Origin: a virus
Lineage: Duplodnaviria > Caudoviricetes
Strand: one strand, 5' to 3'
Virus record (IMG/VR): IMGVR_UViG_3300031658_000005
Coordinates: 1 to 62,507 of that record
Length of the DNA stretch: 62,507 nucleotides
The translations under genes and the position numbers were made by a program. Positions within the stretch are counted from its first letter, which is position 1; every line of letters starts with the position of its first letter. Below are positions 13,323 through 36,377 of the stretch, piece after piece. The notes beneath the pieces were generated by a model. The model was not told where the DNA came from and searched no databases. It saw nothing but the letters and a program-made list of their open reading frames with translations.

Positions 13323-14357
13323 TCAAACCATACTTAACTTCAAATCATTGTCAACCATTTTTCCTACAAGGTTGGTGAAATTTGTTTTAGGCTCCCAGCC
13401 AAGGTTTTTGCGAGCTTCAGAGGAATCGCCCAAAAGCAACTCTACTTCAGCGGGGCGATAGAAATCTGGATTAATTTGCACCAAGACCCTTCCTTCGTGA
13501 AGGTATTTCTCGTTGACTCCCTTTCCCGCCCACTCGCATTTTTCTACGGCAAAACCCGCAAAGTTGAAAGCCTCCTCAACAAACTCTCTAATAGAGTGCG
13601 TCTCGTTAGAAGCGAGAATGTATTCTTTGGGTTCTTCTTGATTTAGCATTAGCCAAACACCCTCCACAAAATCTTCTGCATCACTCCAATCTCTTTTAGA
13701 ATCCACATTACCTAGCTCAAGGGGCTTAAAATCATCAAGAATATACTCTTGCTTAATTCTAGAAACGCCTTTGGTAATCTTGCGGGTAACGAATTCTTCT
13801 CCACGACGAGTCCCTTCGTGGTTAAATAGCCAACCTTGAATAGCAAATAATTGATAAGAATCTCTCCAGACTTTCACCATGTGCCTTGCACTAGCCTTAG
13901 AAACGCCATATGGACTCCGTGGCCGTATTGGGTGAAGTTCTGATTGAGGAGAAAACAAAACGTCTCCAAACTCCTCTGAGGAGCCAGCATTATAGTATCT
14001 GCAATTTGGGCAGTGTTTCCGAATAGCCTCTAGCTGATATAAGACGGCCATTGCGTTCGTTTCCATGTGATTGACTGGCATCCTCCAGCTAACTCCAACA
14101 AAAGAATTAGCAGCGAAGTTAATAAAATAATCAGGCTTCTCTTCTGCAATCACAAGCTCTGTATTGGCCTGATCTGCAACGTCAAGATCAATGAGCTTGA
14201 ATCGTGGATTACCCGCTAGATGAGAAATGTTTTCGTGGTTTTTGACACTGAGGCGACGAACTCCCGCAATAATAGTATACTCTGTATTCTCTAAAAGGTA
14301 GTCTGCCATAAAACTACCATCTTGACCTGTTACTCCTGTAATAATTACTTTTTTCAT
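13323..14357 (-). CDS. gmd: GDP-mannose 4,6-dehydratase
   Basis: IITGVTGQDGS, AANSFVGVSW, AGSSEEFG, PRSPYGVSK, LFNHEGTRRGEEFVTRKI, LGNVDSKRDW, YRPAEVELLLGD. Confidence 0.95.
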   Translation of the reverse strand: MKKVIITGVTGQDGSFMADYLLENTEYTIIAGVRRLSVKNHENISHLAGNPRFKLIDLDVADQANTELVIAEEKPDYFINFAANSFVGVSWRMPVNHMETNAMAVLYQLEAIRKHCPNCRYYNAGSSEEFGDVLFSPQSELHPIRPRSPYGVSKASARHMVKVWRDSYQLFAIQGWLFNHEGTRRGEEFVTRKITKGVSRIKQEYILDDFKPLELGNVDSKRDWSDAEDFVEGVWLMLNQEEPKEYILASNETHSIREFVEEAFNFAGFAVEKCEWAGKGVNEKYLHEGRVLVQINPDFYRPAEVELLLGDSSEARKNLGWEPKTNFTNLVGKMVDNDLKLSMV

Positions 14358-15515
14358 TTAAATATTATTTAATTTAGAAACCAGTTTTTCAATTTTAGTT
14401 TCTTTTAAATTGTGGAAAAGACCCACGTAAAATCCATTGTGATGCAGATCAATCGAGTTGGCATAATCAATTTCATCTTGGAAAAACTCTTTATAGCAAG
14501 TTTGGTAACCTAGAAATCCAGATATAATAGGTCTATATTCTATTTCTAGATCCTTGCATATATTCAATGCCTTCTTTTTTTTATCACTCTTGCATATAAT
14601 AGGTAGACAAAATGGAACATGTTCTCCTTCTTGCAATTCAGTAGGTAAGTAAAATTTATTTAAGTCCAACTTTGATTTAAATAGATTATACAATTTTTTT
14701 CTAGATTCTGTATATTTCTCCACTCTTTTTAGGTCTAGCATACCAACAAAAGCATTGAAATCTGAGTTTCTAAAATTATTACCGAGAGTATAAAAATCAA
14801 AAAGACTATCCACTAATTTATTCTCATAGCAAGAAGTATCTATGTCGTAAGCTTTTAAGCTCCTAACCATGCCATGATTTCTGTTGATTAAATAATATTC
14901 ATACTCCTCTTTCGAATTAGTAAATATAAAGCCTCCCTCAATAGATTGTATTTGATGACCGAAATACGTTGAGGTTGTGGAAGTAAAAAACGAAGAAACA
15001 TTTTTATTATCATAAGTTCCAAATGTATTTTCACAATTATCAAAATTTATATTTACTCCATATTTTTTTTGCAACCTCTGATATTCGCCCATTTTTGGAG
15101 TAAATCCAATCAGTGAAGTTGGAAAAACACAAGCTATTCTATCTTTATTCTTAATAATGAAATCTTCTAGTTTGGATAGATCCATAGAGAAATCAGATAA
15201 ATTTATATCAATAAATTTAGGATTAAATCCCGCTTTAATCCAAGGAGAACAAGATGTCTGCCAAGTAGTTGAGGGTAACACTACAATATTCCTATCTTCA
15301 CAAACAGATTTTTGATAATCCGCCAAAAGAGTATTAGCAGTAGACCCGCTTGAAACATAAACAGAATATTTACAACCCACATAATCTGCCATTTTGAATT
15401 CAAACTCTTTAACTCTATCTCCTTGAGTCCACCTGTTAGAAGGATTCAATATAAATTTGCAAATCTTGAGTCGATCTAAAAAAGAAAAATTATTAATATT
15501 TAAGGGCCAATTCAT
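14358..15515 (-). CDS. colD: PLP-dependent sugar 3-dehydratase, ColD-like (DegT/DnrJ fold, His replacing the Schiff-base Lys)
   Basis: VSSGSTAN, FDNCE, STYFGHQIQSIEGG (His at the catalytic Lys position), RNHGMVR, LGNNFRN, EYRPIISG; directly adjacent to gmd. Confidence 0.75.
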   Translation of the reverse strand: MNWPLNINNFSFLDRLKICKFILNPSNRWTQGDRVKEFEFKMADYVGCKYSVYVSSGSTANTLLADYQKSVCEDRNIVVLPSTTWQTSCSPWIKAGFNPKFIDINLSDFSMDLSKLEDFIIKNKDRIACVFPTSLIGFTPKMGEYQRLQKKYGVNINFDNCENTFGTYDNKNVSSFFTSTTSTYFGHQIQSIEGGFIFTNSKEEYEYYLINRNHGMVRSLKAYDIDTSCYENKLVDSLFDFYTLGNNFRNSDFNAFVGMLDLKRVEKYTESRKKLYNLFKSKLDLNKFYLPTELQEGEHVPFCLPIICKSDKKKKALNICKDLEIEYRPIISGFLGYQTCYKEFFQDEIDYANSIDLHHNGFYVGLFHNLKETKIEKLVSKLNNI

Positions 15516-16447
15516 AAGGTATTGTATACTTTGATTATATTTTTTGCTACAGAAGTTTCGCTAAACTTTTCTTTATATTGAATGCTATGTTTTTCAACAA
15601 AATTTTCACAAGCATCATTCCATTCTGGATTATTTATAGAAGAAGATATTTTATCTGGAGAGGAATCAACGCCTATTCCAGACCATAGTTCTTCGCTAGT
15701 TGGGTCATCCTTACAAACAATTGTCTTTGTTTTTGTCACAATTGATTCTAGCGCTGGTAACCCAACAGATTTAAAAGCTGAAGGAAAAAAGAAATACTCC
15801 ACAGAATTATAAAATAAGTTAAGAACTTCATCACTCACCACTCCATAGTAATCTCCCCACCTTGGGTTCTCTGAACCCACTATAGCTAACGAGTCTACAG
15901 GATCTCCCATCTCCATTATTGTTTCAGCAACAATGTGAAACCTTTTGTTAGGATCATTTGCTCTTCCAACATAAAGGTATTTGTAATTCTTGCCTCTTTG
16001 GTTTTTGATTTTATCTTTATCTTGCAAGTCCAAGTAAGAGACATTTTTTATGGGGTTGTAAATTACTTTGCTTTCTAAATCACACCAATTTAATAATTGC
16101 CACTGAACCTCTTCGCATATGCATGTGACTAAATCACAACCTTTTAACTTTTCTTTTAGGTCCAAGGGGTCGTAGCTTCTCCCATAAGGATTGTCTATGT
16201 AAGGATATCTAGATATATCATACTTATTTCCGTCAATACAGTGAGGAGGCAAATCCAAAACATTATAGATTATTTTAGCTTTTGAATTCTTGTTTTTAAA
16301 ATCAAGATCATACGAAGAAGGATCGTTGCAGTAAATCATATCTGCGTCCTCTATATTTGTTATTTGGTGACCTAAAGAAATAAAACCATTCCTAATTCTA
16401 TCTATTTGATTTATATAAGCTTCTGCTCCTGCACAATAAATATTCAT
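15512..16447 (-). CDS. GT-B glycosyltransferase (GT4-like)
   Basis: KVIYNP, YLYVGR...NKR, YYGVVSDE.L..FYNS...FFFPSAFKSVGLPALES. Confidence 0.8.
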   Translation of the reverse strand: MNIYCAGAEAYINQIDRIRNGFISLGHQITNIEDADMIYCNDPSSYDLDFKNKNSKAKIIYNVLDLPPHCIDGNKYDISRYPYIDNPYGRSYDPLDLKEKLKGCDLVTCICEEVQWQLLNWCDLESKVIYNPIKNVSYLDLQDKDKIKNQRGKNYKYLYVGRANDPNKRFHIVAETIMEMGDPVDSLAIVGSENPRWGDYYGVVSDEVLNLFYNSVEYFFFPSAFKSVGLPALESIVTKTKTIVCKDDPTSEELWSGIGVDSSPDKISSSINNPEWNDACENFVEKHSIQYKEKFSETSVAKNIIKVYNTL

Positions 16448-17205
16448 ATTGTTTTTACTTCTGGTTTTTTTTGATTAAATTTTGTAAAAAATTCTTCTCT
16501 AAATGAAAGTTTATTATTTTCTTCATCCCATTCATAAGAACAGATCCCATTATATCTTTTAAGTTGATACTTTATTTTTGCTTTTAAAAACTCTTTAGAA
16601 CCTACCCAAGAATAGTGGTCAGGAAAACAATTTTCTTTAGGTATTTGTGTAATAGATAAATTTTTATAGTCTACAATTTGGTTATTAATATTATAAGCTA
16701 TATCGTTCTCATAATAAAAATGACTCAACGCATTTTTCCCTTTATACTTTGTAGAAAAGATTCTTGGTGGATTAAAATCCTCAATATAATGACCTTTTGA
16801 AAAGACGAAATTTTTAAAGTTTATCTTATATGATTGGCTTTCGGGATTTTCTTTAATATATTTAATTGTTTTTATTATATCATCTTCTGAATAAAATTCA
16901 TCCTGATCTAGAAGCCATATATAATCAAGATCGTGAACCATCAAATGTTGCAGGGGAGAATTTCTAGAGAAGGAATCATTCGCCTCTTTGCCTAAACAAA
17001 TATAATCGATAAAATCTCTATGGTATTTTAGGAGTTGTATCGGAGTTTCCGTATCATCAATGTCCCACCCACTTTCAACATAATCTTTGTATTGATAGCT
17101 TGACACAGCTACTTTTTTGATCTCTGGTATACTTTTCCAGTTTTTTAAAACCCTCTCTGTATATTCAGGAAAACCATAAAAATTACACAGTAAACCTATT
17201 TTCAT
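16444..17205 (-). CDS. GT-A glycosyltransferase (GT2-like)
   Basis: SRN...DYIWLLDQDEFY (DxD), PPRIF, DHYSWV. Start taken at MKIGLLC (ATGA overlap). Confidence 0.75.
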   Translation of the reverse strand: MKIGLLCNFYGFPEYTERVLKNWKSIPEIKKVAVSSYQYKDYVESGWDIDDTETPIQLLKYHRDFIDYICLGKEANDSFSRNSPLQHLMVHDLDYIWLLDQDEFYSEDDIIKTIKYIKENPESQSYKINFKNFVFSKGHYIEDFNPPRIFSTKYKGKNALSHFYYENDIAYNINNQIVDYKNLSITQIPKENCFPDHYSWVGSKEFLKAKIKYQLKRYNGICSYEWDEENNKLSFREEFFTKFNQKKPEVKTI

Positions 17206-17996
17206 AAACTTTTCCAAAGGTTGAGATTATGCTTTTCCGATTTTCTGTCTTTTAGCTCCTGCTCTGTAATATCATGAGAATTTGGATCACCGCCTGTAGC
17301 CTCTACCCAAAAATTATGCCAAAATTTATTTACCTTGATCCTTTCTTTTAAATCGACATAACCTAGATGGTATACAAAAGGCATCCCACTAGCACAATAT
17401 TTAAGAGTATTTTCTATATCTGTGATATCGCAGAGAGGATATGTTTGCAGGAGTTCTCCTTCGTCATTAATCAATTCATCTGTACTTGTTTTATTGTAAT
17501 CTGGTCTCCCGTCTTCTTTTATACCAAAGTTAACTGGTCCTCTATTTAAACCTTTCTTGTGGATATACCATTTTGCACCAAAATCTATATAATGATTATA
17601 ATTACCATAAAGATTTACTACTGGGACAAAGAGAGACGCAAATTCGTTAGACTGAATTAACTGTTCCCCCAAGTTTACTATGGCCGATTTATCCCCACCT
17701 AATCTTTCGTCCAAGTTTTGTTGGACCATTAAATCTCCAGAACAAGCTTGTAGAGCAGAATTCTCTGTTTTCCCATAACAATACGGGTCATCATAAGAAA
17801 TATCTACTGATACGACTTTAAGATTATATCCCTTCTCTTCTCCATACTGCCTAATGACATTATCTGTATCGTCTTCACTTTTATTGACTGCTATACAAAC
17901 TTCGTCAGCGTAGAAAAACCAATTGTCTAATGCGCCCTTGTGATCAAATCCTTTATCTAAAATGTTAAAGGCTGTTGAATAAATACTTATTTTCAT
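17202..17996 (-). CDS. GT-A glycosyltransferase (GT2-like)
   Basis: MKISIYSTAFN, ADEVCIAVNKSEDDT, NSALQACSGDLMVQQNLDE, VYHLGY. Confidence 0.8.
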   Translation of the reverse strand: MKISIYSTAFNILDKGFDHKGALDNWFFYADEVCIAVNKSEDDTDNVIRQYGEEKGYNLKVVSVDISYDDPYCYGKTENSALQACSGDLMVQQNLDERLGGDKSAIVNLGEQLIQSNEFASLFVPVVNLYGNYNHYIDFGAKWYIHKKGLNRGPVNFGIKEDGRPDYNKTSTDELINDEGELLQTYPLCDITDIENTLKYCASGMPFVYHLGYVDLKERIKVNKFWHNFWVEATGGDPNSHDITEQELKDRKSEKHNLNLWKSL

Positions 17997-17998
17997 AA

Positions 17999-18841
17999 TT
18001 AAAATTTAATTTGTTTAAAACAGCTGAAGTCGTGCTTATCTATAAACCCCTCTTTTTGTTGTAAGATTTTATATCTATACCAATCATTTAAAAATTTGTC
18101 AAAGTTTATACATTCTTTTATTTCGTCATTCAATCTATATCTGAAGCATTCCTCAATTGAGGGCAAACAAAATGGGTTAAGCCCCTCCTTTTTAATGAGT
18201 TCAATTAATTTAGAACGATTCAGGTATCTTTCGTTTACTAACTCTATATCATCTTCAAATCCTAATAAAAGATGATTAGTGTTAGGAAAAAAATAGTATT
18301 TAAAATTATGATCAATGAAATATAGAGGGTCTTGTCTTTTCTCTGACCTAATATTTTTTTGAAACCCCTCCTCCCAAAAGGATTGCTTGGAAAGTTCTAG
18401 AGACTTTGTCACTCCAGAAATCCCTTCGTGAGGGTTGTTTACAAATGCTGTTTGCTCATTGAATTTAAATAAAAATCTTTTATTATGCAAGTATACTCCA
18501 TCTACTCCTGAATAATCAAGGTATGAACAAATACTCTTTAATTTCCCAGTAAAATCTGGAGAAAGTCTTTCTAAGGTATCTATTGTAAGAAACCAATCTC
18601 CGACTTCCATGTAACTCTGAAATAACGAGTGATTCCTGCTGAAGTCCAATCTATTGCACCATTTAGTGTAAATTATCTCTCCCTGACCCTTTACGCTTTC
18701 CAAGTAATCTGCCCCATCATCCTTGGGGTAATGAAAAGTCCAAATAAGACCATCAAAGTCATCTTTAATTGGGTCGATTAATTCTTGAAGATCTTGTTTA
18801 TGACCCTCCGTAGTTATACCTATTAACCAAAGTTTGTTCAT
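17999..18841 (-). CDS. GT-A glycosyltransferase-like protein
   Basis: FDGLIW...DDGADYL...W..RLDFSRNHSL...GDWFLTIDTLERL, RFLF...F.NNPHE pattern of GT2 enzymes. Confidence 0.65.
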   Translation of the reverse strand: MNKLWLIGITTEGHKQDLQELIDPIKDDFDGLIWTFHYPKDDGADYLESVKGQGEIIYTKWCNRLDFSRNHSLFQSYMEVGDWFLTIDTLERLSPDFTGKLKSICSYLDYSGVDGVYLHNKRFLFKFNEQTAFVNNPHEGISGVTKSLELSKQSFWEEGFQKNIRSEKRQDPLYFIDHNFKYYFFPNTNHLLLGFEDDIELVNERYLNRSKLIELIKKEGLNPFCLPSIEECFRYRLNDEIKECINFDKFLNDWYRYKILQQKEGFIDKHDFSCFKQIKF

Positions 18842-19572
18842 CCTATATGTTCTGTGTAAATTTTTTCAGGATCAAAGAATGAAAATGGAGTATTGCTATT
18901 GCTCATGGGTTTCAAAAGATGTCCAGACATTAACTCGCAATGATAAGACCCAAGTTTATCTAAATATTGTTGAGCTGCCTTCCATGCAATAAATATTTCG
19001 TTAGTCCTGCTGATATTAGGTTGAAAAGTAAAAGTAGGACCATATTGAGTGTAATTTACAGCTTGAGTTAAAATATCTCCAGTCTCCTTGTGACTATCTC
19101 CATCTGGAGGTCCATATTCTTCGCTCCGATTAAGTCTTACACAAAGTTGATCAGGATTATTGTCTAGAAATTCTAGGCATTCCTCAATAACTTGTTTTAG
19201 GCAGATTTTTGAATTTATTAAATTATCATCCTCTAGCCACAAAGAATATTTTTGTTTTCTTATTTCTTTGTCCGAATATGCTTTATAGATATCTTTAAAA
19301 TACCCAGCGGAATGCGACAAGTGATTCTCGCTATGATATACTATATTTTCTTTAGACTCTATAACTCTAATATCAACAGAATTGCAAAATGCTTTTATCT
19401 CATCTGCCACTTTTTCTTCTCCGTCTCTCGTCTTTAAATGCAAGAGCTTGTTGGCAAATAAATTAAAATCTATCTGATCATAAAGATTAGTAATGCAATC
19501 TTTGTAAGTGTGCTTGCCACCATGACCCATGGTAGTGCAAAAAACTATTAGATTTAAGGGTAATTTAGACAT
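18838..19572 (-). CDS. putative GT-A glycosyltransferase
   Basis: KYSLWLEDD, FLDNNPDQLCVRL, FTFQP and terminal EHIG pattern; first gene of the GT cluster. Confidence 0.6.
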   Translation of the reverse strand: MSKLPLNLIVFCTTMGHGGKHTYKDCITNLYDQIDFNLFANKLLHLKTRDGEEKVADEIKAFCNSVDIRVIESKENIVYHSENHLSHSAGYFKDIYKAYSDKEIRKQKYSLWLEDDNLINSKICLKQVIEECLEFLDNNPDQLCVRLNRSEEYGPPDGDSHKETGDILTQAVNYTQYGPTFTFQPNISRTNEIFIAWKAAQQYLDKLGSYHCELMSGHLLKPMSNSNTPFSFFDPEKIYTEHIG

Positions 19573-19649
19573 GGAATCTCTAGGATTTATGGAAAATAAA
19601 GACTTAGAGATTACTGTCGCCTCAAGTAGATAAAATCTTAACCTTCCAT

Positions 19650-19677: not shown

Positions 19678-19689
19678 TTATTTTTGTCT

Positions 19690-22565: not shown

Positions 22566-23162
22566 GTGATTAAGAGTTTAACAGATTTAGATCTAACCTT
22601 ATTGATTAAGGAAGATAATGACGAGAATGCTTTGAATGAGTTGATTTCTAGGCATTCGGGAATTTACGTGGACATGCTCTACAAATTTGGATCTAGTTGC
22701 CTGACTCAAACCCAAGTGTCTGATATTATGGGGGAAAAAGACTATGTCATCTATAAGGCTGCTTTAGAATACGACGAAACTAGAGCTAAGTTTTCCACAC
22801 ATCTTGCAAATAAGACAAAATACATGTGTCTTACTCAAAAAACCAAGAATAAAAATAACAAGGTTACAGGAAATTTTGACGAAATACAATTTTGCCAAAA
22901 AGATAAATCTTATACTCCAGATAAATCTTGCCGATTAAATGACTGCTTCAGCAGAATCATTAATTTAATAGAATTACATAAAGACAAGCGTTTAAAGATA
23001 ATTTTCCATGAGAGATATTTTTGTGGACCAAAGGGCAAGTTAAAACCTTGGAAAGATATAGCTCAAATGATAAATTTGTCTGCTCAAGGATGTATAAATA
23101 TTCATAATAGAGCTATAAAAGAATTAAGTCAAAAAATAGATGATGAAAAAATTAAATTTTGA
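22566..23162 (+). CDS. sigma70-family RNA polymerase sigma factor
   Basis: Region 2-like ALNELISRHSGI...KAALEYDETRAKFSTHL; region 4 HTH KPWKDIAQMINLSAQGCINIHNRAIKEL. Confidence 0.85.
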   Translation: MIKSLTDLDLTLLIKEDNDENALNELISRHSGIYVDMLYKFGSSCLTQTQVSDIMGEKDYVIYKAALEYDETRAKFSTHLANKTKYMCLTQKTKNKNNKVTGNFDEIQFCQKDKSYTPDKSCRLNDCFSRIINLIELHKDKRLKIIFHERYFCGPKGKLKPWKDIAQMINLSAQGCINIHNRAIKELSQKIDDEKIKF

Positions 23163-24259: not shown

Positions 24260-24574
24260 ATGAACAATTCATATAAAAAATATTCGAAAGACAGTTGGCA
24301 GAATAACACAGAAATAGCGCTCACTGACAACGGGAACGATTACGTGGCTGAATTCGAGCTAGCAGGATTCTCTAAAGAAGATCTTTCTGTTTCAGCAAAC
24401 GATGAAAGACTTTTTGTCAATGCTAAAAACGACACTAAACAAAAGGAATTCAAATTAAATTTATATGGGATTGTTTCTGTGGATAATATAGCATCAAACA
24501 TGAAGAATGGACTGTTAAAAATAACTCTTCCCAAGAAGAGTGTTGTAGGTAAAAGAAAAGTAGAAACCACGTAG
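24260..24574 (+). CDS. small heat-shock protein (Hsp20/alpha-crystallin)
   Basis: ELAGFSKEDLSV...ASNMKNGLLKITLPK. Confidence 0.9.
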   Translation: MNNSYKKYSKDSWQNNTEIALTDNGNDYVAEFELAGFSKEDLSVSANDERLFVNAKNDTKQKEFKLNLYGIVSVDNIASNMKNGLLKITLPKKSVVGKRKVETT

Positions 24575-26453: not shown

Positions 26454-28149
26454 AAAACTCAGGGTTCTAGTCCACTCTAATCATAGTAGGCTTGTTACTG
26501 GATTTGGCAAAAATGCTAAAAATATTCTTTTAGCATTACATGCTGACCCGCAAATTGAAGTTATTGAAGCTGGAAATGGAGTTAAATTTGGGGCTGACTT
26601 ATTGACTCCTTGGGAGTCTTATGGGACTAGCCCCACTGACCCACTTGTTTTGCAAGGCATACAAGGCAATGGGCAGAAAGAAAGAATGGCTCAATATGGA
26701 TATTATACTATCGACGAAATTGTCGATAGATGTAATCCAGATGTTTACCTTGGAATCGAAGACATTTGGGCGTTTTCCGAATATCACAAGAAACCTTGGT
26801 GGAATAAAATCAATAAAGTTCTTTGGACGACATTAGACAGTTTGCCGATTTTAGACCAAGCCCTGCAAATGGAGCCTCTTTGCGATAAGATGTTAGTGTG
26901 GGCATCATTCGCAGAATACGAAATGAAAAAGCTTGGACACAAGAATGTCGAAACACTCCACGGAGCTGTTGACTACTTTCATTTTAAGCCGATAGACCAC
27001 AGGTCTTCCATAAGAAAGAAATTTGGTTTGGATTCAAATTATGTGATAGGTTTTGTTTTTAAAAATCAATTAAGAAAATCAGTCCCCAACCTTCTAGAGG
27101 GTTTTAAAATTTTCAAAAAACAGAATCCAGATGCTGCAGCAAAACTGTTATTGCATACTGATTGGGCAGAGACTTCTCATGGCTGGGATATACCGAGATA
27201 TCTTAAAGAGATGGATATTGATCAAAATGATGTCCTTTCCACCTATCTTTGCCATGCTTGTGATTACTTTCATGTAGCCCCTTATCAAGGAGAAGATAAA
27301 AATTGCCCTCAGTGCAAAACAGAAAAGTCATTTAAAACTAAAAATAGCGCAAAAGGAGTTAACGAAAAACAATTAAATGAACTCTATAATTGCATGGACG
27401 TTTACTGCCATCCATTCACAAGCGGAGGACAAGAATTACCCATTCAAGAAGCGAAGGCAGCAGGACTGGTAACTTTAGTTACAGGTTATTCTTGTGGAAC
27501 AGACTCTTGTTACAAACGCCAAGGAGGAATTCCTCTAAAGTGGAATTCATATAGAGAGCCTAGCACTCAATTCATTAAAGCATCTACTTGCCCGAAAGAT
27601 ATTGCAAAAAAGTTAAAAATGGTCTTCCATATGCCAAAAGCAGAAAAACTTCTTTTGGCAGAAAAAGGATTAAAATATGTAAAAAAGAATTTTTCTGTTG
27701 AGTCCACTGTAAACAAACTCAAGAATATTTTGTTTTCTCTAGAAAAGCCCATAATCAAAGAAGAAGAGACGAAGGACTCCCCCAAGACTTTAGGGATTGA
27801 AGATGCATTAGGAGATGAAGGCATCTCTAATAGGATCGCCGTTGTTCTTCCTGAATCAGCTGGAGATATTCTCATTCTGAATTCTTTAATGAAGAATCTT
27901 AAAGATTTGTATCCAGAAAAAAACATATACGTCTTTACTAAACCTCAATTTTATCAGATGATTGAGGATAATCCAAGTGTTCATAAAATCCTTCCATATC
28001 AAGATAGTCTTCAAAACCTATTAATGTTAGAAGGAAGGGGGGACCATCAGGGGTATTTTGACATGGCTTTTTTGCCTAATATCGGGACACAAAAACATTT
28101 AAACTATCTCCATAACGGTAAAGATAAAACACAATTTGAGTTACGATGA
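26437..28149 (+). CDS. GT4-like glycosyltransferase with Cys4 insertion, fused to the N-terminal half of a GT9 heptosyltransferase
   Basis: TGFG, KNQLRKSVPNL, CHAC...CPQC insert, LNELYNCMDVYCHPFTSGGQELPIQEA. C-terminal IAVVLPESAGDILILNSLMKNLKDLYPEKNIYVFTKPQFYQMIEDNPSVHKILPY is WaaC/WaaF N-domain-like. Confidence 0.8.
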   Translation: MESHSKKLRVLVHSNHSRLVTGFGKNAKNILLALHADPQIEVIEAGNGVKFGADLLTPWESYGTSPTDPLVLQGIQGNGQKERMAQYGYYTIDEIVDRCNPDVYLGIEDIWAFSEYHKKPWWNKINKVLWTTLDSLPILDQALQMEPLCDKMLVWASFAEYEMKKLGHKNVETLHGAVDYFHFKPIDHRSSIRKKFGLDSNYVIGFVFKNQLRKSVPNLLEGFKIFKKQNPDAAAKLLLHTDWAETSHGWDIPRYLKEMDIDQNDVLSTYLCHACDYFHVAPYQGEDKNCPQCKTEKSFKTKNSAKGVNEKQLNELYNCMDVYCHPFTSGGQELPIQEAKAAGLVTLVTGYSCGTDSCYKRQGGIPLKWNSYREPSTQFIKASTCPKDIAKKLKMVFHMPKAEKLLLAEKGLKYVKKNFSVESTVNKLKNILFSLEKPIIKEEETKDSPKTLGIEDALGDEGISNRIAVVLPESAGDILILNSLMKNLKDLYPEKNIYVFTKPQFYQMIEDNPSVHKILPYQDSLQNLLMLEGRGDHQGYFDMAFLPNIGTQKHLNYLHNGKDKTQFELR

Positions 28150-29276
28150 GCCATTTAGCAGAGGAATACGCCAAATCATGCGGAGTAAAGATTGGTAAGC
28201 CAGTATTGAATCCTCATTACTTCCCAGTTTTATATGATAAATATATTACAATTCATAATGACAAGAAGGTTCAGGCAAAAGAATACGATATGTGGGTTGA
28301 TGTTATTGAACTTCTTAAAACGCATTTGGGAGATATTAAAATCATCCAAGTCGGAGCTAAAGGAGAAAAAACAATTGACGGCGTAGATGCTCATATGCCC
28401 ACAGAAACTCTGAAGCAATCTGCTTATATTATAAAAAACTCTTTAGGACATGTCGGGATTGATAGTGTCCCTATTCACATCGCTTCTGCATTAGATAAGC
28501 CCGTTGTAGGCATCTATGCTCACACATATGCAGACACATGTTCTCCGCTTTGGAATGATAAAACAAAAGCGATAACAATTGAATCAGATAGAGGTGGCAA
28601 AAAACCCTCATTTTCTTTAGAGGAAAATCCAAAAACGATCAATTTCATAAAACCAGAAGAGATCGCTCAAGCTGTTCTTGATGTTTTAGAAATCGATGAG
28701 AAAGTTGTTCATGAAACAATTTTCATTGGGGGTAATTGTAAGTCAGATTTTTACGAGGTTATACCGATAAAGCGCACAAATATTGTGTCTGATAATATTG
28801 ATGTAAGGATGGACTACGCTCACAACGAAGAAGTCTTAAATTACATCCTCCAAAGGAATAAAGTGGAGGTTACGACCACAAAACCTATTAATGAAAATCT
28901 CATTAGGTCCAAAAAGATAAAAAAAATAATCTATAAGGCGGAATCTTTTGATGTTGAGTTTCTCAACCTAGTGAAGGAAGTGGGAGTGCCTATTATAACA
29001 ATATGCACATCTTCGAAAAACCTTCCTGAAGAAAGATCTAAAAACTTTGATCAGCTAATTAATTATCTAGATACTCAGGCAATTATTGAGAATAACAAGA
29101 AAAAGATCAATGTAGATGATTTTAATACAATTAAAATTAAAAGTAATAAAAAAATAGTTTGCGGAGACGATATTTACCCAAGCTATTTTGATTTGAATGA
29201 ACGCAAAAATTTAGATCATTTTTACCTTGACTTAGAATTCTTTAGAGTTTATCATGACCCACATGAGCAAGAATAG
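28146..29276 (+). CDS. C-terminal half of a GT9 heptosyltransferase plus an unknown domain
   Basis: HLAEEY, YITIH...AKEY..W, IIQVG, LKQSAYIIKNS..HVGIDSVPIHIASALDKPVVGIY (GT9 DSGxxHxAxA motif). Confidence 0.8.
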   Translation: MSHLAEEYAKSCGVKIGKPVLNPHYFPVLYDKYITIHNDKKVQAKEYDMWVDVIELLKTHLGDIKIIQVGAKGEKTIDGVDAHMPTETLKQSAYIIKNSLGHVGIDSVPIHIASALDKPVVGIYAHTYADTCSPLWNDKTKAITIESDRGGKKPSFSLEENPKTINFIKPEEIAQAVLDVLEIDEKVVHETIFIGGNCKSDFYEVIPIKRTNIVSDNIDVRMDYAHNEEVLNYILQRNKVEVTTTKPINENLIRSKKIKKIIYKAESFDVEFLNLVKEVGVPIITICTSSKNLPEERSKNFDQLINYLDTQAIIENNKKKINVDDFNTIKIKSNKKIVCGDDIYPSYFDLNERKNLDHFYLDLEFFRVYHDPHEQE

Positions 29277-30078
29277 TGTTTACGGCCCAGATATTTACAA
29301 GAGAAACGAGCATGGTCTTTTAGGGAATGCCCTATATTCTTTCAATGAAGATGGTTCTGTTGATTGGAGGTCCATGATTAAAGACAACTTCCTTTATCCT
29401 AATAAAGATTGGTTTGAGGCAAGAAAGAAGCCCATCCCAAGTTCTACTGACGGATTAAGAGATAATCAACTCTTGATTATGCTTGGTGGCATCAAGGAAC
29501 TCGCCAAAATAAGAGGCTATAGTTCTGTAAATTTTGATATAGATAACATTTCAGACGGTTACGTTACGGCCAAATGCACAATTGAATGGGATGGCAATTA
29601 CGAGTCATCTATTACTACCTATACAGATGTCGCGAATGCCACATTAGCTAACACAGATGCTTTTTGTGCGAAATTTTTAGAGACTATCGCTTGCAATAGG
29701 GCTTTTGTTAGGTGTGTTCGCAATTACTTGGGCATTCACATTGTAGGTGCTGATGAAATCGATAAGTCAAAAGGGGCTAATAATTCCAATACAGTGGAGT
29801 ATGATGCATCCAGCGATGCTGTAATGTTCCCATTAACGCCTTCAGGATCGCTTCAGAAGGCCTTGGGCGAGAATCGCGGAGTAAACTCCTTTGAGGAGTT
29901 TAAAGCGCTTTTAAGGGCGTTCTGGAAGGATAATTCTTATCGTCCCACCGTTTCTGGAGAGTTCACTAATGAAGAGAAAGAGAAAGAGATGTCGAAGGAA
30001 ATTAAAAGTTGGAAATCTTATGACGACATCCCAGCCAAAGAGTGCAGGAAATTGATTGCAATTTGCAAAAACTCATAA
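29254..30078 (+). CDS. putative Rad52/Sak-like single-strand annealing protein
   Basis: GGIKELAKIRGY...VTAKCTIEW...DVANA...LETIACNRAFVRCVRNYLGI resembles the SSAP 'AxxxAxxRxxxxxLGI' helix. Confidence 0.5.
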   Translation: MTHMSKNSVYGPDIYKRNEHGLLGNALYSFNEDGSVDWRSMIKDNFLYPNKDWFEARKKPIPSSTDGLRDNQLLIMLGGIKELAKIRGYSSVNFDIDNISDGYVTAKCTIEWDGNYESSITTYTDVANATLANTDAFCAKFLETIACNRAFVRCVRNYLGIHIVGADEIDKSKGANNSNTVEYDASSDAVMFPLTPSGSLQKALGENRGVNSFEEFKALLRAFWKDNSYRPTVSGEFTNEEKEKEMSKEIKSWKSYDDIPAKECRKLIAICKNS

Positions 30079-32532
30079 ACCCAAGGCATTTCTCTGCCTT
30101 GCGTTGAAGGACTTTGGAAGCATTGACTTTGGAGTGAGGGCTTCCATTCCTTCCGTTATCATGAAGCTTTGCTCTGGCGGTATAAGTTTAATTGTAGATT
30201 CGCTTACGGTTGTAGTGATCCCATTGCTGCCAACAGAAATAGATACAGAGTTCATTGTCGGGAAAAACTCTGGGACTACTAGCCCGTAAAAAGTCCTACT
30301 AGAACTCTGAGGCCTATCATAACGATTGTTGTATTTCCCCCTGATTTCCTGCAAAACTTTCATTTCGGCTGTAGAGCCAGAAGCGCTTGATAAACTTAAT
30401 TTATTAATAATTGATTTGTTAGTCTCAATGCGAGGGGGACTTTGAATAGAATTATATTTGAAATCATACCTATCAAAGAGATCGGCTAGTTTCTGACCTG
30501 ATTCAGAAGAACTTGCTATCTGATCATCTTCTTCCTCTTCTCCTTCTTCACCAATCTTATTAACTCTTGTTTTACTTCTTGTATAAGTTAGTTTTATGGT
30601 TTTCTTTACCTCAATAGCGTTCATGAACTTTTGCGTCGATTCTTTGAGTAAATTAATTATTCCTGTCCCTAAAGTTTTTCCTGTTACTTCTTTAGGAACA
30701 GAAGGCCCTCCGATATAAAACTGATTTTGAAATCCTAGTTGGTCTACTATTTCATAAAAATCACCCAACATAGAAAAATCAACTTTAGCATCTTCTCCCT
30801 CCCTCTCTAGTTTAGGCAGCGCCCTGAGACCAACAAAATAATTATCATGTATCTTTTTTACTGGATTTCCGATTTTTGTTTTTCCTCGATCTTCTTTAGT
30901 TTGAGTTAATAGCCCCAAGTCCTTAACTGTTAAGTCTTTTTTGGTGTTTAAATTGTCAAGGTAAGTGGAAATTGAAGATAACTCTGGAATTTCTGAGATT
31001 TTGTCGTTTCCTTTTAATGGTCCAACAATAACAATATTATTACTATTTGAAAACTCCATCCTTTCAGACTTGTAGTCAGAGTAGGCATTTGAGATATAGA
31101 TTCCCCCAGCAATTTCGAAATACGACTTTAAAAAACTATACAATTCTGTTGTGTGAGGCCTAGGCATTTTCTTGGGCGTAGGATTGTCTTCAACGCTGAT
31201 ATCGTTATACATTAATCTAAGATATTTAAATTTATTATCCAGCCTATTCATGCCTTTAAGCTTAGTAAGTTTAGCTACTACTTTTGCCCGTGGTTCGGCT
31301 TCATCGTCATATACACTCTCTAAGTCATCCCCAAAGTAAGTGACGAGCTTTACTCCGTTTCCTTTTACCTCTGCCAAGGGTAAATATGGATACAATTTAG
31401 ATAGATCGAAGTTTTCTATACTTTCTGCTTTGGCTATAGCAGTACAGAAGTAAGTAAATTTATCAAAGTAATCGTTGCTTTCTTCTTGCTCTATTAAACT
31501 AAAGAAAGCTCCCAAAACAGGAATAGGAGCTTTTTTTGTAAGCCCGTAATCTTCAAATCTGCATCTTTTGAAGAATATAGGCCTAGGTCTATAATCAGCT
31601 TTTGAACTAGAAGAATCCTTGCTTCTTTCTGTTGTTCCAGAATAGGTATTAACAATCTTATTTAATACATTGGTCTCCGTAAAAGAAGAACTCAAGACAT
31701 TGGGGTCGTTAGTATTCACATGAGAAGGGATTTTAATTTGACTAGCAATATCAGAGTTAACAAACTCGACGGCCCCAGTTTGAGGATTAATATACCAAAA
31801 ATACCCTAAGCTTCCCGCTATACTACTTATCACGCTAGACAAAGTCCCACTCACTTCAAATAAAAGGTCGTCAGTTTCTTTCAAACCATTTACGAATACT
31901 CCAGCGCTACTTAAAGCTTTCTTAAATTCAGACAGCGTATACCCAAATTTCAAATCATATTGAGATAAATCAGGAGAATCTTTGTAAATTTTACTTACGA
32001 AATCTGTGTTTAAAGACAAGTTTTCTTTTAATTCTTTATTTTGATAAATTAAACTTATTTTTACTCCTTTGAAGCTTGATGCAGATTCTATGTTGTAAAT
32101 CTTTCCAAGATAGATTACAGAGTCCTCTACTACTGGTCCTTGAGTTTTGAAAGATTTCAAAGGCGATCCTTTCACTTCTGTAAAATACGGGACAGAATCT
32201 TCGAATTCTCCTCCTTCAGGCCCACAATTAATCCCTCTAACTAAAATTATATAAGAATCCAATATCAAAGATGTTCTATCTGTATATCTTCTTGTTATAA
32301 CTTTTTTGGTTGGGTCTGCGGATGTAGTTTTTGAAGTGCAGACAAAATTACCTAACATGTTATTGATTTTCTGATTAGTGAAGTTATTGACTTCTCCCAA
32401 ATCTCCTAAAACGGTTCCTAGGGTCTCGCCATCTTCTACAGATTTTGGATTTACCAAAGAAGTTACAGATGCTGTGTGGCCTCCTCCAGCATTTGTAAAA
32501 TTCAAATCCACTTTTGTAATACCTTCTTTCAT
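30073..32532 (-). CDS. putative tail tip/baseplate protein
   Basis: 819 aa, distal gene of the tail module; SSVISSIAGSLGYFWYINP resembles hub/Tal-type segments. Confidence 0.5.
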   Translation of the reverse strand: MKEGITKVDLNFTNAGGGHTASVTSLVNPKSVEDGETLGTVLGDLGEVNNFTNQKINNMLGNFVCTSKTTSADPTKKVITRRYTDRTSLILDSYIILVRGINCGPEGGEFEDSVPYFTEVKGSPLKSFKTQGPVVEDSVIYLGKIYNIESASSFKGVKISLIYQNKELKENLSLNTDFVSKIYKDSPDLSQYDLKFGYTLSEFKKALSSAGVFVNGLKETDDLLFEVSGTLSSVISSIAGSLGYFWYINPQTGAVEFVNSDIASQIKIPSHVNTNDPNVLSSSFTETNVLNKIVNTYSGTTERSKDSSSSKADYRPRPIFFKRCRFEDYGLTKKAPIPVLGAFFSLIEQEESNDYFDKFTYFCTAIAKAESIENFDLSKLYPYLPLAEVKGNGVKLVTYFGDDLESVYDDEAEPRAKVVAKLTKLKGMNRLDNKFKYLRLMYNDISVEDNPTPKKMPRPHTTELYSFLKSYFEIAGGIYISNAYSDYKSERMEFSNSNNIVIVGPLKGNDKISEIPELSSISTYLDNLNTKKDLTVKDLGLLTQTKEDRGKTKIGNPVKKIHDNYFVGLRALPKLEREGEDAKVDFSMLGDFYEIVDQLGFQNQFYIGGPSVPKEVTGKTLGTGIINLLKESTQKFMNAIEVKKTIKLTYTRSKTRVNKIGEEGEEEEDDQIASSSESGQKLADLFDRYDFKYNSIQSPPRIETNKSIINKLSLSSASGSTAEMKVLQEIRGKYNNRYDRPQSSSRTFYGLVVPEFFPTMNSVSISVGSNGITTTVSESTIKLIPPEQSFMITEGMEALTPKSMLPKSFNARQRNALGL

Positions 32533-33389
32533 AAAATAATTTCCTCTTTTTTAGTTGTAACCTTAAAGCTTTTTCCTTCAATTGACCCACTAATCAAAGC
32601 GCTAACTCCTGTTCTAACTATAGTTACACCTGTATAAAGCTCTAGATAGTTTGATTGGAACTCTGACACACCATTAATATAATAATTAGTCCTTTTTTCA
32701 ATAAATCCAGAACCAAAAACATCAGGATTTTTTCCTGTCACAGAGTCTGACCTAAATCTTTTCTTGTAAGCGCTGTATTTAAATTGATTTTTATTATCTG
32801 ATGTAACTACACCTCCGACATTTACAGATTCTGATCCAGCTCCTCCAAAAAGAGGTGTGAAATTAGCCTCTGTCCCAACAGAAACTCCAATACCGACACC
32901 AGAATATACTTTCTGGCCATTTAGAAAATAATCGCAATCCGAAAAACTTACTGGCCCTACAGAATTCACGATAGAATCTTTTAAAGATTGTCCGAAATCT
33001 CCTGTGGCAACGATAATGTCTGAGCCAGAAACGAGGTTATAGGAAATCTCAGAAAAAGAGTTTTCTGGAGTAGTGTCGTCAAAAAATAATTTTGATCTTT
33101 GGAATGGATCAGCTTCTAAGTTTTTTATAAAAAAATCTCCTGTATTTATTTTATATAAAATTTCATTAATGGCTTGCTCTATAATTGGGTCTTCCTGCAG
33201 TAGGGTCTGACCATTTAAAGATAATTGGAACCTTTTATCTTCAAGAGATATGTTTCTGTCGTAATAAAAATCGCCTTGAGTTCCTGCCACGCCTTTATTC
33301 AATAAAGAATAATTATCGGTATGCAAATCTATAGAAGAGCATCCAGAAATAGTTGAGTCACCAGTAAATATAGTAGAGTCGTAAATCAT
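32529..33389 (-). CDS. putative tail/virion protein
   Basis: Position in the tail module; repeated (L/I)NG motifs (SLNGQ, FLNGQ, YINGV); [S/T]G-rich. Confidence 0.55.
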   Translation of the reverse strand: MIYDSTIFTGDSTISGCSSIDLHTDNYSLLNKGVAGTQGDFYYDRNISLEDKRFQLSLNGQTLLQEDPIIEQAINEILYKINTGDFFIKNLEADPFQRSKLFFDDTTPENSFSEISYNLVSGSDIIVATGDFGQSLKDSIVNSVGPVSFSDCDYFLNGQKVYSGVGIGVSVGTEANFTPLFGGAGSESVNVGGVVTSDNKNQFKYSAYKKRFRSDSVTGKNPDVFGSGFIEKRTNYYINGVSEFQSNYLELYTGVTIVRTGVSALISGSIEGKSFKVTTKKEEIIL

Positions 33390-34771
33390 ATTCTTTCTCC
33401 TAAATAGTAAATGTAATCTTTCTTTAAGTATTCTCCACTTGTGTCCATTCTAATTCCAGAATTTTTAAGTTTTGTAATTATTGTTTTACTCTCGTAGAGA
33501 GGAATCTGTATAACGCCGCTAATCTCGTCTAGTGTCCCTACTTGCATCCTAGATCCAAACAGCTGAACTGAAATCTCACCTGCCCCAGAGACTCCTCTGT
33601 CCTCTGCATATTGACTAATAGCGCCTTCTACATCTTGCAATCCAAGAGTATCAAAGGCTGATGTGTCACCAGTCGGCAAATATTGATATCCAGAGTCGGG
33701 GTGCAAAAATCCTACTTCTTCTTTGACAAAGTTTGTAGTATTTCCTACATCACAGGATCTATAAACAAAATACCTATCTCCCTCTTCAACACTCGCGTTC
33801 GAGGCAGACCGAAAGCTCCCCGTGGACATATATCTTCCTGTTGACAAGTTGATACTGCCAGTATCTTTATAATCGTAGCCTGTAATTCCAGTTTTATAAA
33901 CAGTAGCTTGGTCGTAACCTGTGATTATTGAATTAGTGCTTGTAGCGCCTATACCAACAAAATAATTTCCTACCATTCCGCTTCCTAATCCAAATATAGT
34001 AGAGGGAGAAATATAACCAGACAATAAAGCAAAAGAATTTAAACTTATATTCGAGGTTTCAAATGATCCTCCATTACCTCTAAAATATTGTTCAGAACCT
34101 CCTATATAAAATCCTGAATTATTAGCTATGAAGGTAGTATCAAGAGTAAAGTCGTCTTTTTCTATTTCATTATTCAAGAAGTCATACCTGCACATGGTAA
34201 GCTGATTAAAGCCAAGCGAAAAACTAATAATATTTCTTTTACTTAATTCTAATTCAGTAGAGGTGTAAATAAAATCCCCATCTTCACCGAATCCTTGGTA
34301 AAATAATTTTCCTCTATCTGTTATGCCAAAGTTGAACCCCCTTGCTCCTGTTATAACTTGTTCGTTAATTATACTTGACCCCTTTTCAAGAGATCCAAAC
34401 AAAACACAATCATTTACCTCTCCATTGAACTCAAAGTCCATAACAACCGAACAATTAGAATAAGGGAAAAGGTCAGTTCCAGTGACTTGCAAATTTGATT
34501 TAGACAAATCTCCTTTGTCGTTGAGCAAGAATTCTCCTGTGGCAAAAAGCTTCGCATCTTGAACTGTTGATCCTAAACCTACAAGAACCCCACTATAGAC
34601 CCCTGTGTCTCTTGCTGGCTCGCAGTTTTCAATAACAGCATAGTTAGTTCCTGCTCTATTATCAATTCCTATATGCCTTCCACTAAGCCCAGAGAAATTA
34701 TAAAAGACAAACAAGTTTTCATTGCTTCCTAGTGTATCTCTTAAAGAATAATCTAAACCTTTTTCACTCAT
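33386..34771 (-). CDS. putative tail protein, possibly with a concanavalin A/LamG-like domain
   Basis: LFVFYNF start, GFNFGITDRGKLFY, FYIGG; [S/T]G-rich. Confidence 0.5.
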   Translation of the reverse strand: MSEKGLDYSLRDTLGSNENLFVFYNFSGLSGRHIGIDNRAGTNYAVIENCEPARDTGVYSGVLVGLGSTVQDAKLFATGEFLLNDKGDLSKSNLQVTGTDLFPYSNCSVVMDFEFNGEVNDCVLFGSLEKGSSIINEQVITGARGFNFGITDRGKLFYQGFGEDGDFIYTSTELELSKRNIISFSLGFNQLTMCRYDFLNNEIEKDDFTLDTTFIANNSGFYIGGSEQYFRGNGGSFETSNISLNSFALLSGYISPSTIFGLGSGMVGNYFVGIGATSTNSIITGYDQATVYKTGITGYDYKDTGSINLSTGRYMSTGSFRSASNASVEEGDRYFVYRSCDVGNTTNFVKEEVGFLHPDSGYQYLPTGDTSAFDTLGLQDVEGAISQYAEDRGVSGAGEISVQLFGSRMQVGTLDEISGVIQIPLYESKTIITKLKNSGIRMDTSGEYLKKDYIYYLGERI

Positions 34772-34772
34772 A

Positions 34773-36377
34773 TTAATAGTATTTACTTATATTATAAGAA
34801 ATATTCTTATCATTTAAACTACTAGACTCAGAATATATAAATACGCCTGTCATGTATCCACTTACTGTATCTTTAAGTTCTTGGAGATGCCCTGTGGAAG
34901 CCTCGCAAGATGCTGCCGCCGATAATTGCCCTGCGGTGCGATTGTTAATTTTTTGCTTAGCGAACCCTCCAAGACTTGGAACAATACCGCTTAGTTCTAA
35001 AGGCCTGTTATCTGTTAAAGAAATTTGTAGTCCAGTTAAACTCCCATTAGAAAGATCTGGCCCATTGTCAAAGGAGAGGGAATAAGATATGCTGCTTTGA
35101 TTGGGGTTTTTTGAAATAGACCTACTAATCGGCTCAGGGTTTATGTAATCCCCGCTTATGTGATACCCACTTGCATACCCAGTGAATTCTTGCAGGGCTT
35201 CAATCGCCAAATTTAAAAATCCTGAATCAGCAGCTAGGCCGCTATATTGCTCATCTATTTCTGCAAATCTCTGACCAGTTGCGGGATCTCCAGTGGGAAT
35301 AACTTCAAATGGAGAATTATATTTAAAATCTCCCTGTATGGAAACCTGCACTTTAGAGTCGTCTTTGCTAGCGCTGACTGTGGAACTCCTTGTATGTAAT
35401 ACGTTTCCTACTTGATCTAAGTTTTCGGGGTTGGAAAAACCATAAGAGAAAGAAATAATATTTGTTCCAGTGTCTATGTCGTAAGATGACGTAGAAGGCC
35501 CCCTATCTATAAATGTATAGACTCCACTTTCATAATCAGAAAGAGATGAAACTACCGAATTAACGGCAATTTCTTGAGCCATAGAAGCTGTAAATAATCC
35601 TGTAGAAATTATACCTTTAGAGTTTTTAATAGCATCGAAATCCCCTTGAATGCTAGCTGTCACATTAACGTTTAAGCCTTCGTCTCTTCCATATGCTATT
35701 GAACAATTAGATTGGAAGACTCCAGATAAACCTGTATGTATATATTCGCTTGTATTGTATCGATAAGTTTCTTGTAGTCCATATGTGTTTTTACTCTTGT
35801 CTATGTTTTCGGTCCTAGACATTAAGTATCCCGTAGATCCTGTTAAAAATAAACTCAAGTCATTATATCCTGTGACTCTCCCTGTTACAAAATGCCTTGC
35901 ATTTACCAATGGAGACGCAGAATTAACCTTAACTCCTTTTGCAGAAACATTATGAGTGGATTCTACAATTCGACCATCCTGTTCGTTGAATGACCAAGTG
36001 TCTATTGGGTCAGATATTCCAAAAAACTCTGAAAAACTATTGGACTCATAACAACTAAAGGATACGGAATAAGGCAAGAATGTAGTCAAGTCTGAATCTG
36101 AGAAAGAGATGGTTTCTGGCTTTGCTTTCAAAAAAGTCTCGTCTTGTGATTCGTGCGAGATGGTTAATGTCTCAAATGTAGACATCATCCCACTAATCAT
36201 TTTCATTTTTTGTAAATGCAAGCCGCTTAAATTTTCTCCCGTTAAGTTCCCAACTAATTCAATAGAGTTTTTGGTGTGATCTATTTTTCCAGCAATATAA
36301 ACAGGCTCAATCCCTTGTCCTACAAAAGGAATAGGACTTGGGAATGAATAACTTCCATATGTAATTTGTTCGGACAT
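34773..36377 (-). CDS. putative tail (distal tail/baseplate) protein
   Basis: Second gene after the tape measure; beta-rich and S/T/G-rich. Confidence 0.55.
   Translation of the reverse strand: MSEQITYGSYSFPSPIPFVGQGIEPVYIAGKIDHTKNSIELVGNLTGENLSGLHLQKMKMISGMMSTFETLTISHESQDETFLKAKPETISFSDSDLTTFLPYSVSFSCYESNSFSEFFGISDPIDTWSFNEQDGRIVESTHNVSAKGVKVNSASPLVNARHFVTGRVTGYNDLSLFLTGSTGYLMSRTENIDKSKNTYGLQETYRYNTSEYIHTGLSGVFQSNCSIAYGRDEGLNVNVTASIQGDFDAIKNSKGIISTGLFTASMAQEIAVNSVVSSLSDYESGVYTFIDRGPSTSSYDIDTGTNIISFSYGFSNPENLDQVGNVLHTRSSTVSASKDDSKVQVSIQGDFKYNSPFEVIPTGDPATGQRFAEIDEQYSGLAADSGFLNLAIEALQEFTGYASGYHISGDYINPEPISRSISKNPNQSSISYSLSFDNGPDLSNGSLTGLQISLTDNRPLELSGIVPSLGGFAKQKINNRTAGQLSAAASCEASTGHLQELKDTVSGYMTGVFIYSESSSLNDKNISYNISKYY

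Follow-up and report, generated by a model that had tools for sequence, protein, structure and literature searches.

We examined a linear stretch of viral DNA of 62,507 nucleotides, the whole of the IMG/VR viral record IMGVR_UViG_3300031658_000005 (Duplodnaviria; Caudoviricetes), and found that several proteins predicted to form the tail tip of the encoded phage carry an excess of Ser or Thr directly before Gly, a dipeptide written [S/T]-G hereafter. The stretch is referred to throughout as the window. The bias is directional, is confined to tail-tip proteins that are not homologous to one another, and is conserved over deep divergence. A preliminary description of the window had taken [S/T]-G for an acceptor sequon of glycosyltransferases encoded nearby; the sequence signature is real and unusual, and is wider than that description saw. 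From sequence comparison, our favoured though tentative reading is that proteins of the tail tip are O-glycosylated at [S/T]-G, which we regard as a serious possibility. The record is estimated to be 43% complete, and complete relatives are about 147 kb long, with direct terminal repeats in one; the window covers about 43% of the genome of an uncultured siphovirus, which is about 147 kb in size.

The [S/T]-G excess in tail-tip proteins

Each protein was compared with 20000 composition-preserving shuffles, and counts are given below with their observed-to-expected ratio (O/E). The 534-amino-acid protein encoded at 34773..36377, on the minus strand like the other genes described in this section, has 46 glycines, and 24 of these are preceded by Ser or Thr where 10.4 were expected (O/E 2.30), a number reached in 0 of 20000 shuffles. 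The reverse order, G-[S/T], is depleted in the same protein (4 versus 10.4 expected). The 461-residue product of 33386..34771 holds 22 [S/T]-G against 10.6 expected (O/E 2.07, shuffle p 1.5e-4) and 13 in reverse order, and the 285-residue product of 24952..25809, encoded among glycosyltransferase genes, holds 16 against 7.7 (O/E 2.07, p 7.5e-4). A further protein that the preliminary description had not listed, the 286-residue product of 32529..33389, has 11 against 5.5 (p 0.009). O/E is thus 2.0-2.3 in these four proteins, while the reverse dipeptide is not enriched. In the 421-residue product of 44663..45928 there are 11 sites against 6.1 expected (p 0.026), with 8 of the 11 within the first 130 residues. 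The hand counts made earlier were all exact on recount, and the enrichment they suggested survives correction for composition.

When these five proteins, picked after the counts were known, were pooled, TG was the most over-represented of all dipeptides (42 versus 15.4 expected; z 6.8, 2.74-fold) and SG the second most (42 versus 25.0, 1.68-fold). DG was depleted (4 versus 12.2, O/E 0.33), PG was absent against 5.2 expected, and NG stood at 0.87. The remaining 50 proteins of the window gave 0.89 for SG and 1.05 for TG. The Thr and Ser codons of the motif are diverse, with ACN, AGY and TCN all used; the bias therefore acts at the protein level, and a DNA-level cause was ruled out. A shared repeat module was likewise rejected as the source, since hhalign gave probabilities of at most 0.5% among the four most enriched proteins, which are therefore mutually non-homologous.

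The tape measure gene at 37928..42943 (PF10145, 6e-24; phrog_4211, 5e-43) encodes a protein without enrichment (20 versus 24.1 expected). It is followed by a gene in the distal-tail (Dit) position at 36377..37927, whose 516-residue product is depleted in [S/T]-G (1 versus 5.4 expected), in line with the preliminary description. Next come the 534-residue protein, which is built of tail-tube-like modules and occupies the hub or Tal position, and the two enriched distal tail proteins at 33386..34771 and 32529..33389. An 819-residue tail protein at 30073..32532 has 7 sites against 10.0 expected, and its orthologues range from O/E 0.3 to 1.6. Both the gene order after the tape measure and the tail-tube-like fold fit a siphovirus tail tip. 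Searches of Pfam and PHROG with the products of 24952..25809 and 44663..45928 returned no match; the C-terminal part of the latter contains G-D-S-G-Q-P, which may echo the catalytic-serine motif of trypsin-like proteases.

An AlphaFold2 (AF2) model of the 534-residue hub candidate (pLDDT 77.5) comprises four strand-strand-helix-strand modules, and a Foldseek search with the whole model gave weak matches to tail and baseplate chains (best E 1.9e-3). The model of the 33386 product (pLDDT 77) matched lectin-like binding domains at E ~1e-7 and shows a lectin-like jelly roll with very long beta-hairpins, so that the two models have different folds. In the predicted hub model, 21 of the 24 [S/T]-G sites fall in coil or helix, mostly at helix ends, and the other Ser and Thr residues lie predominantly in strands (60 of 97).

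The 534-residue protein had 116 homologues in metagenome protein sets, and its relatives were placed in 50 viral loci. Orthologues of the 33386 product had an O/E of 1.7-3.1 in all 48 loci having one; those of the 24952 product ranged from 1.7 to 3.0, and those of the 32529 product from 1.4 to 3.7, even at 24-30% identity. Orthologues of the Dit-position protein, encoded beside the most enriched protein, had O/E values of 0.0-1.0, often 0.2-0.4, which reflects either avoidance or chance inherited by descent. Within the 534-residue family, 19 of the window's 24 sites were kept in at least 74% of 111 sequences, and Ser and Thr within the motif were conserved at 0.84 as compared to 0.63 for other Ser and Thr. 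In a complete relative (G019), only three proteins had an O/E of at least 1.8 with at least 8 sites, and all three are encoded in the tail region.

The hub sites persist down to about 45% identity and are lost in one sublineage. Of the 24 sites of the window, this small motif-poor clade has kept 1-3, its total being 1-7; pairs such as NS, KD and KE stand in place of the others. It is nested beside a clade averaging 15.6 sites. Only this nested position was used from a gain and loss tree with an outgroup (171 gains, 76 losses), as the outgroup alignment, at about 25% identity, was unreliable. The clade retains the hub fold, and the fold therefore does not need the motif; it also keeps the glycosyltransferase cassette described below, and its orthologues of the 33386 and 32529 products are still enriched. 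Orthologues of the 33386 product at 34-43% identity have 17-26 sites with only 10-14 of them in the window's columns, and in these alignments site density is maintained by turnover.

The glycosyltransferase cassette, the sugar island and other phage groups

Candidate enzymes for modifying such sites are encoded in a cassette of four genes on the plus strand at 25848-30078. The first gene, at 25848..26453, travels with the other three both in loci of the window's family and in other phage groups. The second, at 26437..28149, encodes a GT4-like domain of the GT-B type (phrog_2170, 1e-18) carrying an inserted four-Cys zinc ribbon, and its C-terminal stretch is similar to the N-lobe found in GT9 enzymes. 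C272, C275, C290 and C293 (CxxC...CxxC) are invariant in its family, whose members are 55-88% identical across the phage family, and the insertion, at residues 272-293, resembles ribosomal zinc ribbons (eL43). A profile of this family searched against the PDB matched BshA (2.8e-4), Gtf1 (6.8e-4) and, at residues 464-522, the GT9 structure 3tov (0.028). The third gene, at 28146..29276, begins with the C-lobe of a GT9 (heptosyltransferase-family) enzyme (PF01075, 2.5e-9, residues 34-144), followed by about 200 unassigned residues, and its family profile matched WaaF (1psw) at 0.0026. The fourth gene, at 29254..30078, is conserved with the cassette, and its profile gave nothing significant against the PDB; single-sequence PDB searches with the second and third products gave nothing useful.

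A GT9-like enzyme thus appears, from these matches, to be split over two genes, with a stretch like the N-lobe ending the 26437 product and the C-lobe starting the 28146 product. The two genes overlap by ATGA at 28146-28149. In another record (G029; L066, 9823-13452) their homologues are fused in frame in an open reading frame (ORF) of 1209 residues that also includes a domain like the product of 17202 in the sugar island described below.

The cassette is among the best conserved parts of the region. Of 49 family loci, 42 had a homologue of 26437; six of the remaining seven end early on that side, and the seventh record has the gene elsewhere. By sequence comparison, the four-gene cassette is core to the phage family, and because 26437 is nearly universal there, co-occurrence of cassette and motif within the family cannot discriminate between explanations.

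Unlike the cassette, a nucleotide-sugar island at 13323-19572, on the minus strand, is polymorphic between relatives; in G019, for example, a methyltransferase and a CAP59-like enzyme are encoded next to the homologue of Gmd. The first gene of the island, at 13323..14357, encodes the GDP-mannose 4,6-dehydratase (Gmd) recognized earlier (PF16363, 6e-103; TIGR01472, 2e-96), with homologues in 23 of 28 related records at 33-88% identity, sometimes duplicated. The second, at 14358..15515, encodes a pyridoxal phosphate enzyme of the DegT/DnrJ/EryC1 family (PF01041, 3e-45), a sugar aminotransferase or 3-dehydratase, whose best NCBIfam matches, PseC (2e-37) and RfbH (6e-33), were both far under cut-off. 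It had been called ColD-like; the DegT family stands, and either a ColD or a Per assignment would fit. A proposed HldD-like gene was not found, the sole trace being a weak short-chain dehydrogenase similarity of Gmd itself (E 0.0097).

Five small ORFs complete the island at 15512..19572. The preliminary description had counted eight glycosyltransferases in the region, and four of these are well supported by family matches at E of at most 1e-7: the GT-B-like product of 15512 (phrog_2170, 1e-7), both cassette enzymes, and the GT-B-type product of 23140..24228 on the plus strand (phrog_2170, 1.8e-17 over 14-351), which has a homologue at 36% identity in a distant record (G028). Weaker matches were obtained for 17999, which is GT2-like and has a SunS-family GT2 N-terminus (N-terminal part of TIGR04195, 5.6e-7), and for 16444 (GT2, PF00535, 0.0034). 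Searches of glycosyltransferase and other protein families with 17202 and 18838 returned no match, but 17202 is homologous to the C-terminal part, residues 882-1135, of the fused 1209-residue glycosyltransferase ORF of G029 (3e-7).

We then compared these proteins with tail proteins of phages in general. In lambda, T5, SPP1, Che8, Slash and T4, the 51 proteins with an expected count of at least 4 had a mean O/E of 1.13, a median of 1.08 and a maximum of 1.98, with two values of at least 1.8; the tail proteins of Che8 ranged from 0.8 to 1.7. Eleven J-type central fibres of cultured phages, none with the cassette, gave a pooled O/E of 0.96 (range 0.70-1.26). Among 77 uncultured J-type fibres from 80 loci, the median was 1.00, the maximum 1.60, and none reached 1.8; the cassette was found in none of 50 of their records searched (23 at least 90% complete), in a search run without a positive control. 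These three sets rule out a generic property of tail proteins as the origin of the bias.

The cassette glycosyltransferase is encoded in at least 429 viral stretches, and a tblastn search with 26437 against 50,697 phage records gave no cassette match. We kept 80 cassette loci, 31 of the window's family and 49 of other groups, the latter having no homologue of the window's tail proteins detectable by BLAST. In the other groups, with near-identical loci left uncollapsed and ORFs counted if at least 4 sites were expected, O/E was at least 1.8 in 31 of 151 ORFs, compared to 5 of 151 for the reverse order, and 22 of the 49 loci held at least one ORF with an O/E of at least 1.8 and at least 8 sites. 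Several of the enriched ORFs are lambda-J-type central fibres (phrog_31, E ~1e-100). Taken together, 34 distinct J-like ORFs beside the cassette had O/E values of 0.40-2.12 with a median of 1.30 (pooled, 952 versus 707 expected), and 12 of them reached 1.5. A rank test of 27 of these ORFs against the 77 uncultured fibres gave p 2e-5, with the selection favouring the glycosylation reading, as three near-duplicates and four short ORFs with O/E 0.40-0.71 were left out. Eleven other-group ORFs chosen for their high scores gave 2.44 for TG and 1.66 for SG, near the window's own values, and 1.18 for DG, which is not depleted in them. Most sites of two J-like proteins were located past the conserved J core, in the distal C-terminal part.

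Readings of the motif

If the tail tip is glycosylated as we tentatively propose, the cassette enzymes would find their substrates, tail-tip proteins just synthesized, in the cytoplasm and would attach O-linked glycan to the Ser or Thr of [S/T]-G at numerous positions. The variable island would supply and elaborate the sugar, and the outcome would be a host-recognition apparatus covered with glycan. In the fuller version, hyper-O-glycosylation would extend to the hub, lectin-like baseplate proteins and distal central fibres of a large group of uncultured phages, with the conserved cassette providing the enzymes and the polymorphic island diversifying the glycan; this is an extrapolation from sequence that we hold to be slightly less probable. 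The earlier suggestions of a multi-sugar glycan like lipopolysaccharide (LPS), and of heptose or dideoxyhexose masses, are unsupported.

Among the nearest parallels are TibC and AAH, which hyper-heptosylate the autotransporters TibA and AIDA-I. They are GT-B enzymes of the cytoplasm, kin to the heptosyltransferases of LPS, and modify numerous hydroxyls of a beta-rich surface protein. TibC is such an enzyme and modifies Ser-313 of TibA within N-S-G-G (PMC4358343). It has an N-terminal beta-barrel and forms a dodecamer, and a four-Cys iron finger inserted in its catalytic domain grips the substrate; the account in the same source describes modification of Ser only, in loops of a beta-helix, and not of Thr (PMC4358343). 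The cassette is alike in having the GT9-like 28146 product, and the invariant four-Cys insertion of the 26437 product recalls the iron finger. The cassette is unlike TibC and AAH in that the four cysteines lie in the GT4-like protein and not in the GT9-like enzyme, which is split over two genes and matches its family only weakly (2.5e-9 in Pfam, 0.0026 to 1psw). On present sequence evidence, the system of the window does not appear to be a member of the TibC/AAH family.

Phages that encode their own glycosyltransferases, with virion proteins as the proposed targets, are found among mycobacteriophages, and in this the two systems are alike. Freeman et al. 2023 (Cell Host Microbe) are said to have found capsid and tail-tube subunits targeted there, reportedly with no [S/T]-G sequon described. 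The window differs in that enrichment is seen in its tail tip but not in its candidates for capsid and tube. The HFTV1 preprint contains nothing on virion glycosylation, and a literature search on O-glycosylation sequons in bacteriophage tail proteins, judged by titles, returned no paper on such a motif.

A number of results weigh against glycosylation. Residues flanking the motif are often hydrophobic (54% at -1, 51% at +1 and 46% at +2, versus a background of 34%). The preliminary description had the phage coating its exposed virion proteins in general; this narrows to the tail tip, since the capsid candidate at 51153 (O/E 0.97) and the tail-tube candidate at 46843 (1.13) are without enrichment. 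In the model of the 33386 product, 11 of 22 sites are within long predicted strands, and given this, many of its sites may be poorly accessible. TibC acts on Ser only, whereas here TG exceeds SG, both in the window (2.74 versus 1.68) and in the other groups (2.44 versus 1.66). TibA and AIDA-I share their autotransporter group with Ag43 (PMC3835316). The O/E of Ag43 for [S/T]-G is 0.83. In G019 and G020, the hub orthologues have lost the motif, yet the cassette was kept. The cassette of G028 adjoins the genes for Pol III alpha and other replication proteins, not tail genes. Ag43 is not natively glycosylated in K-12, and its O/E is therefore weak evidence.

The comparison with other groups, too, is mixed. 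Five of the 31 enriched ORFs are homologues of Pol III alpha, a non-virion protein, with about 11 sites versus 5.5 expected. Their O/E of about 1.9 (L120, L132, L130, L143 and L119; the window's own Pol III alpha has 1.31) means that, where counts are small, values of this size can arise from a conserved enzyme fold. Nine of the 34 J-like proteins beside the cassette have an O/E below 1.0. All cassette carriers share further genes, Pol III alpha among them, and the link between cassette and motif may reflect only shared ancestry. Co-occurrence of the enrichment with glycosyltransferase clusters, which had been put forward earlier as a check on the sequon, therefore gives a divided result: outside the window's family, the same preference for Thr over Ser recurs in fibres and is absent from J-type fibres that lack the cassette, but some J-like proteins are unenriched and the carriers are possibly kin. 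The link is suggestive, not independent of ancestry.

Because all cassette carriers may be kin, the strongest rival is that [S/T]-G is a structural idiom, that is, a lineage-specific way of building turns, bulges and helix caps in the beta-rich modules of fibres and baseplates, spread by descent and module exchange, with the glycosyltransferases remodelling the surface polysaccharide of the infected cell and so blocking further adsorption. The hydrophobic flanks would suit such a habit, as would the placement of sites, which in the hub model is at the ends of secondary-structure elements and in the 33386 product within long beta-hairpins, the positional conservation of many sites, and an enrichment that follows a set of phages also sharing replication genes. 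Clusters for nucleoside diphosphate sugars and glycosyltransferases in phages, polymorphic between relatives, have been read as diversifying the outer polysaccharide of the host (PMC7824862). The island of the window resembles those described in large phages, its genes for Gmd, the DegT-family enzyme and the small glycosyltransferases forming a cluster that is variable between relatives; the four-gene cassette, in contrast, is conserved, and the published reading, in the part that concerns these islands, involves no tail-protein motif (Iyer et al. 2021, PMC7824862). Remodelling of the host surface fits the island at 13323-19572, which varies between relatives, and fits the conserved, non-polymorphic cassette less well. 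Against the structural habit, the bias is common to four non-homologous proteins with differing folds, the hub fold persists without the motif, J-type fibres elsewhere lack the excess, and the pairs usual at turns, DG and PG, are depleted (O/E 0.33 and 0 versus 5.2). We consider this explanation somewhat less likely than glycosylation.

Some other selective cause, such as a different modification (phosphorylation or acylation), a chaperone or assembly signal, or the replacement of labile Asn-Gly and Asp-Gly in long-lived particles, seems improbable. The low DG (0.33) and NG (0.87) of the window's five proteins are in keeping with such replacement; DG, at 1.18, is not low in the enriched proteins of other phage groups, and the capsid and tape measure, equally long-lived, are unaffected. 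An Hsp20/alpha-crystallin gene lies at 24260-24574, among these genes, between the glycosyltransferase gene 23140 and the [S/T]-G-rich 24952, and the bias is confined to few virion proteins, both of which speak for such a cause. Neither the window nor the complete relative G019 showed a kinase or an acyltransferase, which speaks against it.

We judge it very improbable that the glycosyltransferases instead glycosylate the phage DNA and have no connection with the protein motif. DNA-modifying glycosyltransferases are well known from phages (PMC13326640), and the G028 cassette does adjoin replication genes. Phages with glycosylated DNA (the T-even phages with glucosyl-hydroxymethylcytosine, RB69 and DLP3 with arabinosyl-5-hydroxycytosine) are alike in having GT-B enzymes and sugar-nucleotide genes (PMC13326640). 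In the known routes, however, a homologue of thymidylate synthase first provides a hydroxylated pyrimidine (PMC13326640), and the window's phages differ both in having no such homologue and in strongly avoiding restriction sites. PF00303, the ThyA homologue, was absent from all five records searched, three of them complete, with the control positive in 10 of 14 genomes; PF12851 (Tet_JBP) was not found either, in a search whose control was silent. A Pfam scan of 96 ORFs of G019 showed no pyrimidine-hydroxylating enzyme (thymidylate-synthase homologue or TET/JBP).

Two 4-base palindromes are almost wholly avoided: in the window, CCGG is absent where shuffles give 57.8 +/- 7.6, and GTAC is found 6 times versus a Markov expectation of 89.6; in G019 (147 kb; L052-L059), the counts are 0 versus about 240 and 1 versus 174. 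Avoidance of this kind would be unneeded if cytosine were modified throughout, which makes such blanket modification unlikely. It points to host restriction systems of those specificities and to unmodified DNA, and DNA glycosylation is disfavoured. ACC and TCC codons never precede the Gly codon within the motif (0 of 84), which fits this avoidance.

The phage and the meaning of the motif

The rest of the window is that of a phage distant from those in culture. Its large terminase (56467-58371) is only 24-27% identical to the best cultured-phage matches, a blastn search of the tail region against cultured phages gave no match, and the capsid-family candidate (51153-52292) was assigned by a weak match. 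The Pol III alpha replicase (3620-7480) has a split PHP domain: the core is encoded at 3620-6181, with separate ORFs upstream for an RNase T-like exonuclease (6181-6795) and the PHP domain (6782-7480), unlike in G028, where the PHP part and the polymerase are fused. The window also encodes a DnaB-like helicase, a primase, a UvsX-like recombinase, a class I ribonucleotide reductase and PhoH.

If the tail tip is glycosylated at [S/T]-G, phages would have their first example of virion glycosylation defined by a sequon and readable from sequence, and target proteins and sites would be predictable from metagenomes alone. Virion glycosylation would extend from mycobacteriophages to a widespread group of uncultured phages, and would raise the role of a glycan on receptor-binding proteins, be it shielding, self-avoidance, stability or host mimicry. 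If glycosylation is not the cause, there remains an unexplained directional dipeptide bias in non-homologous proteins of the tail tip.

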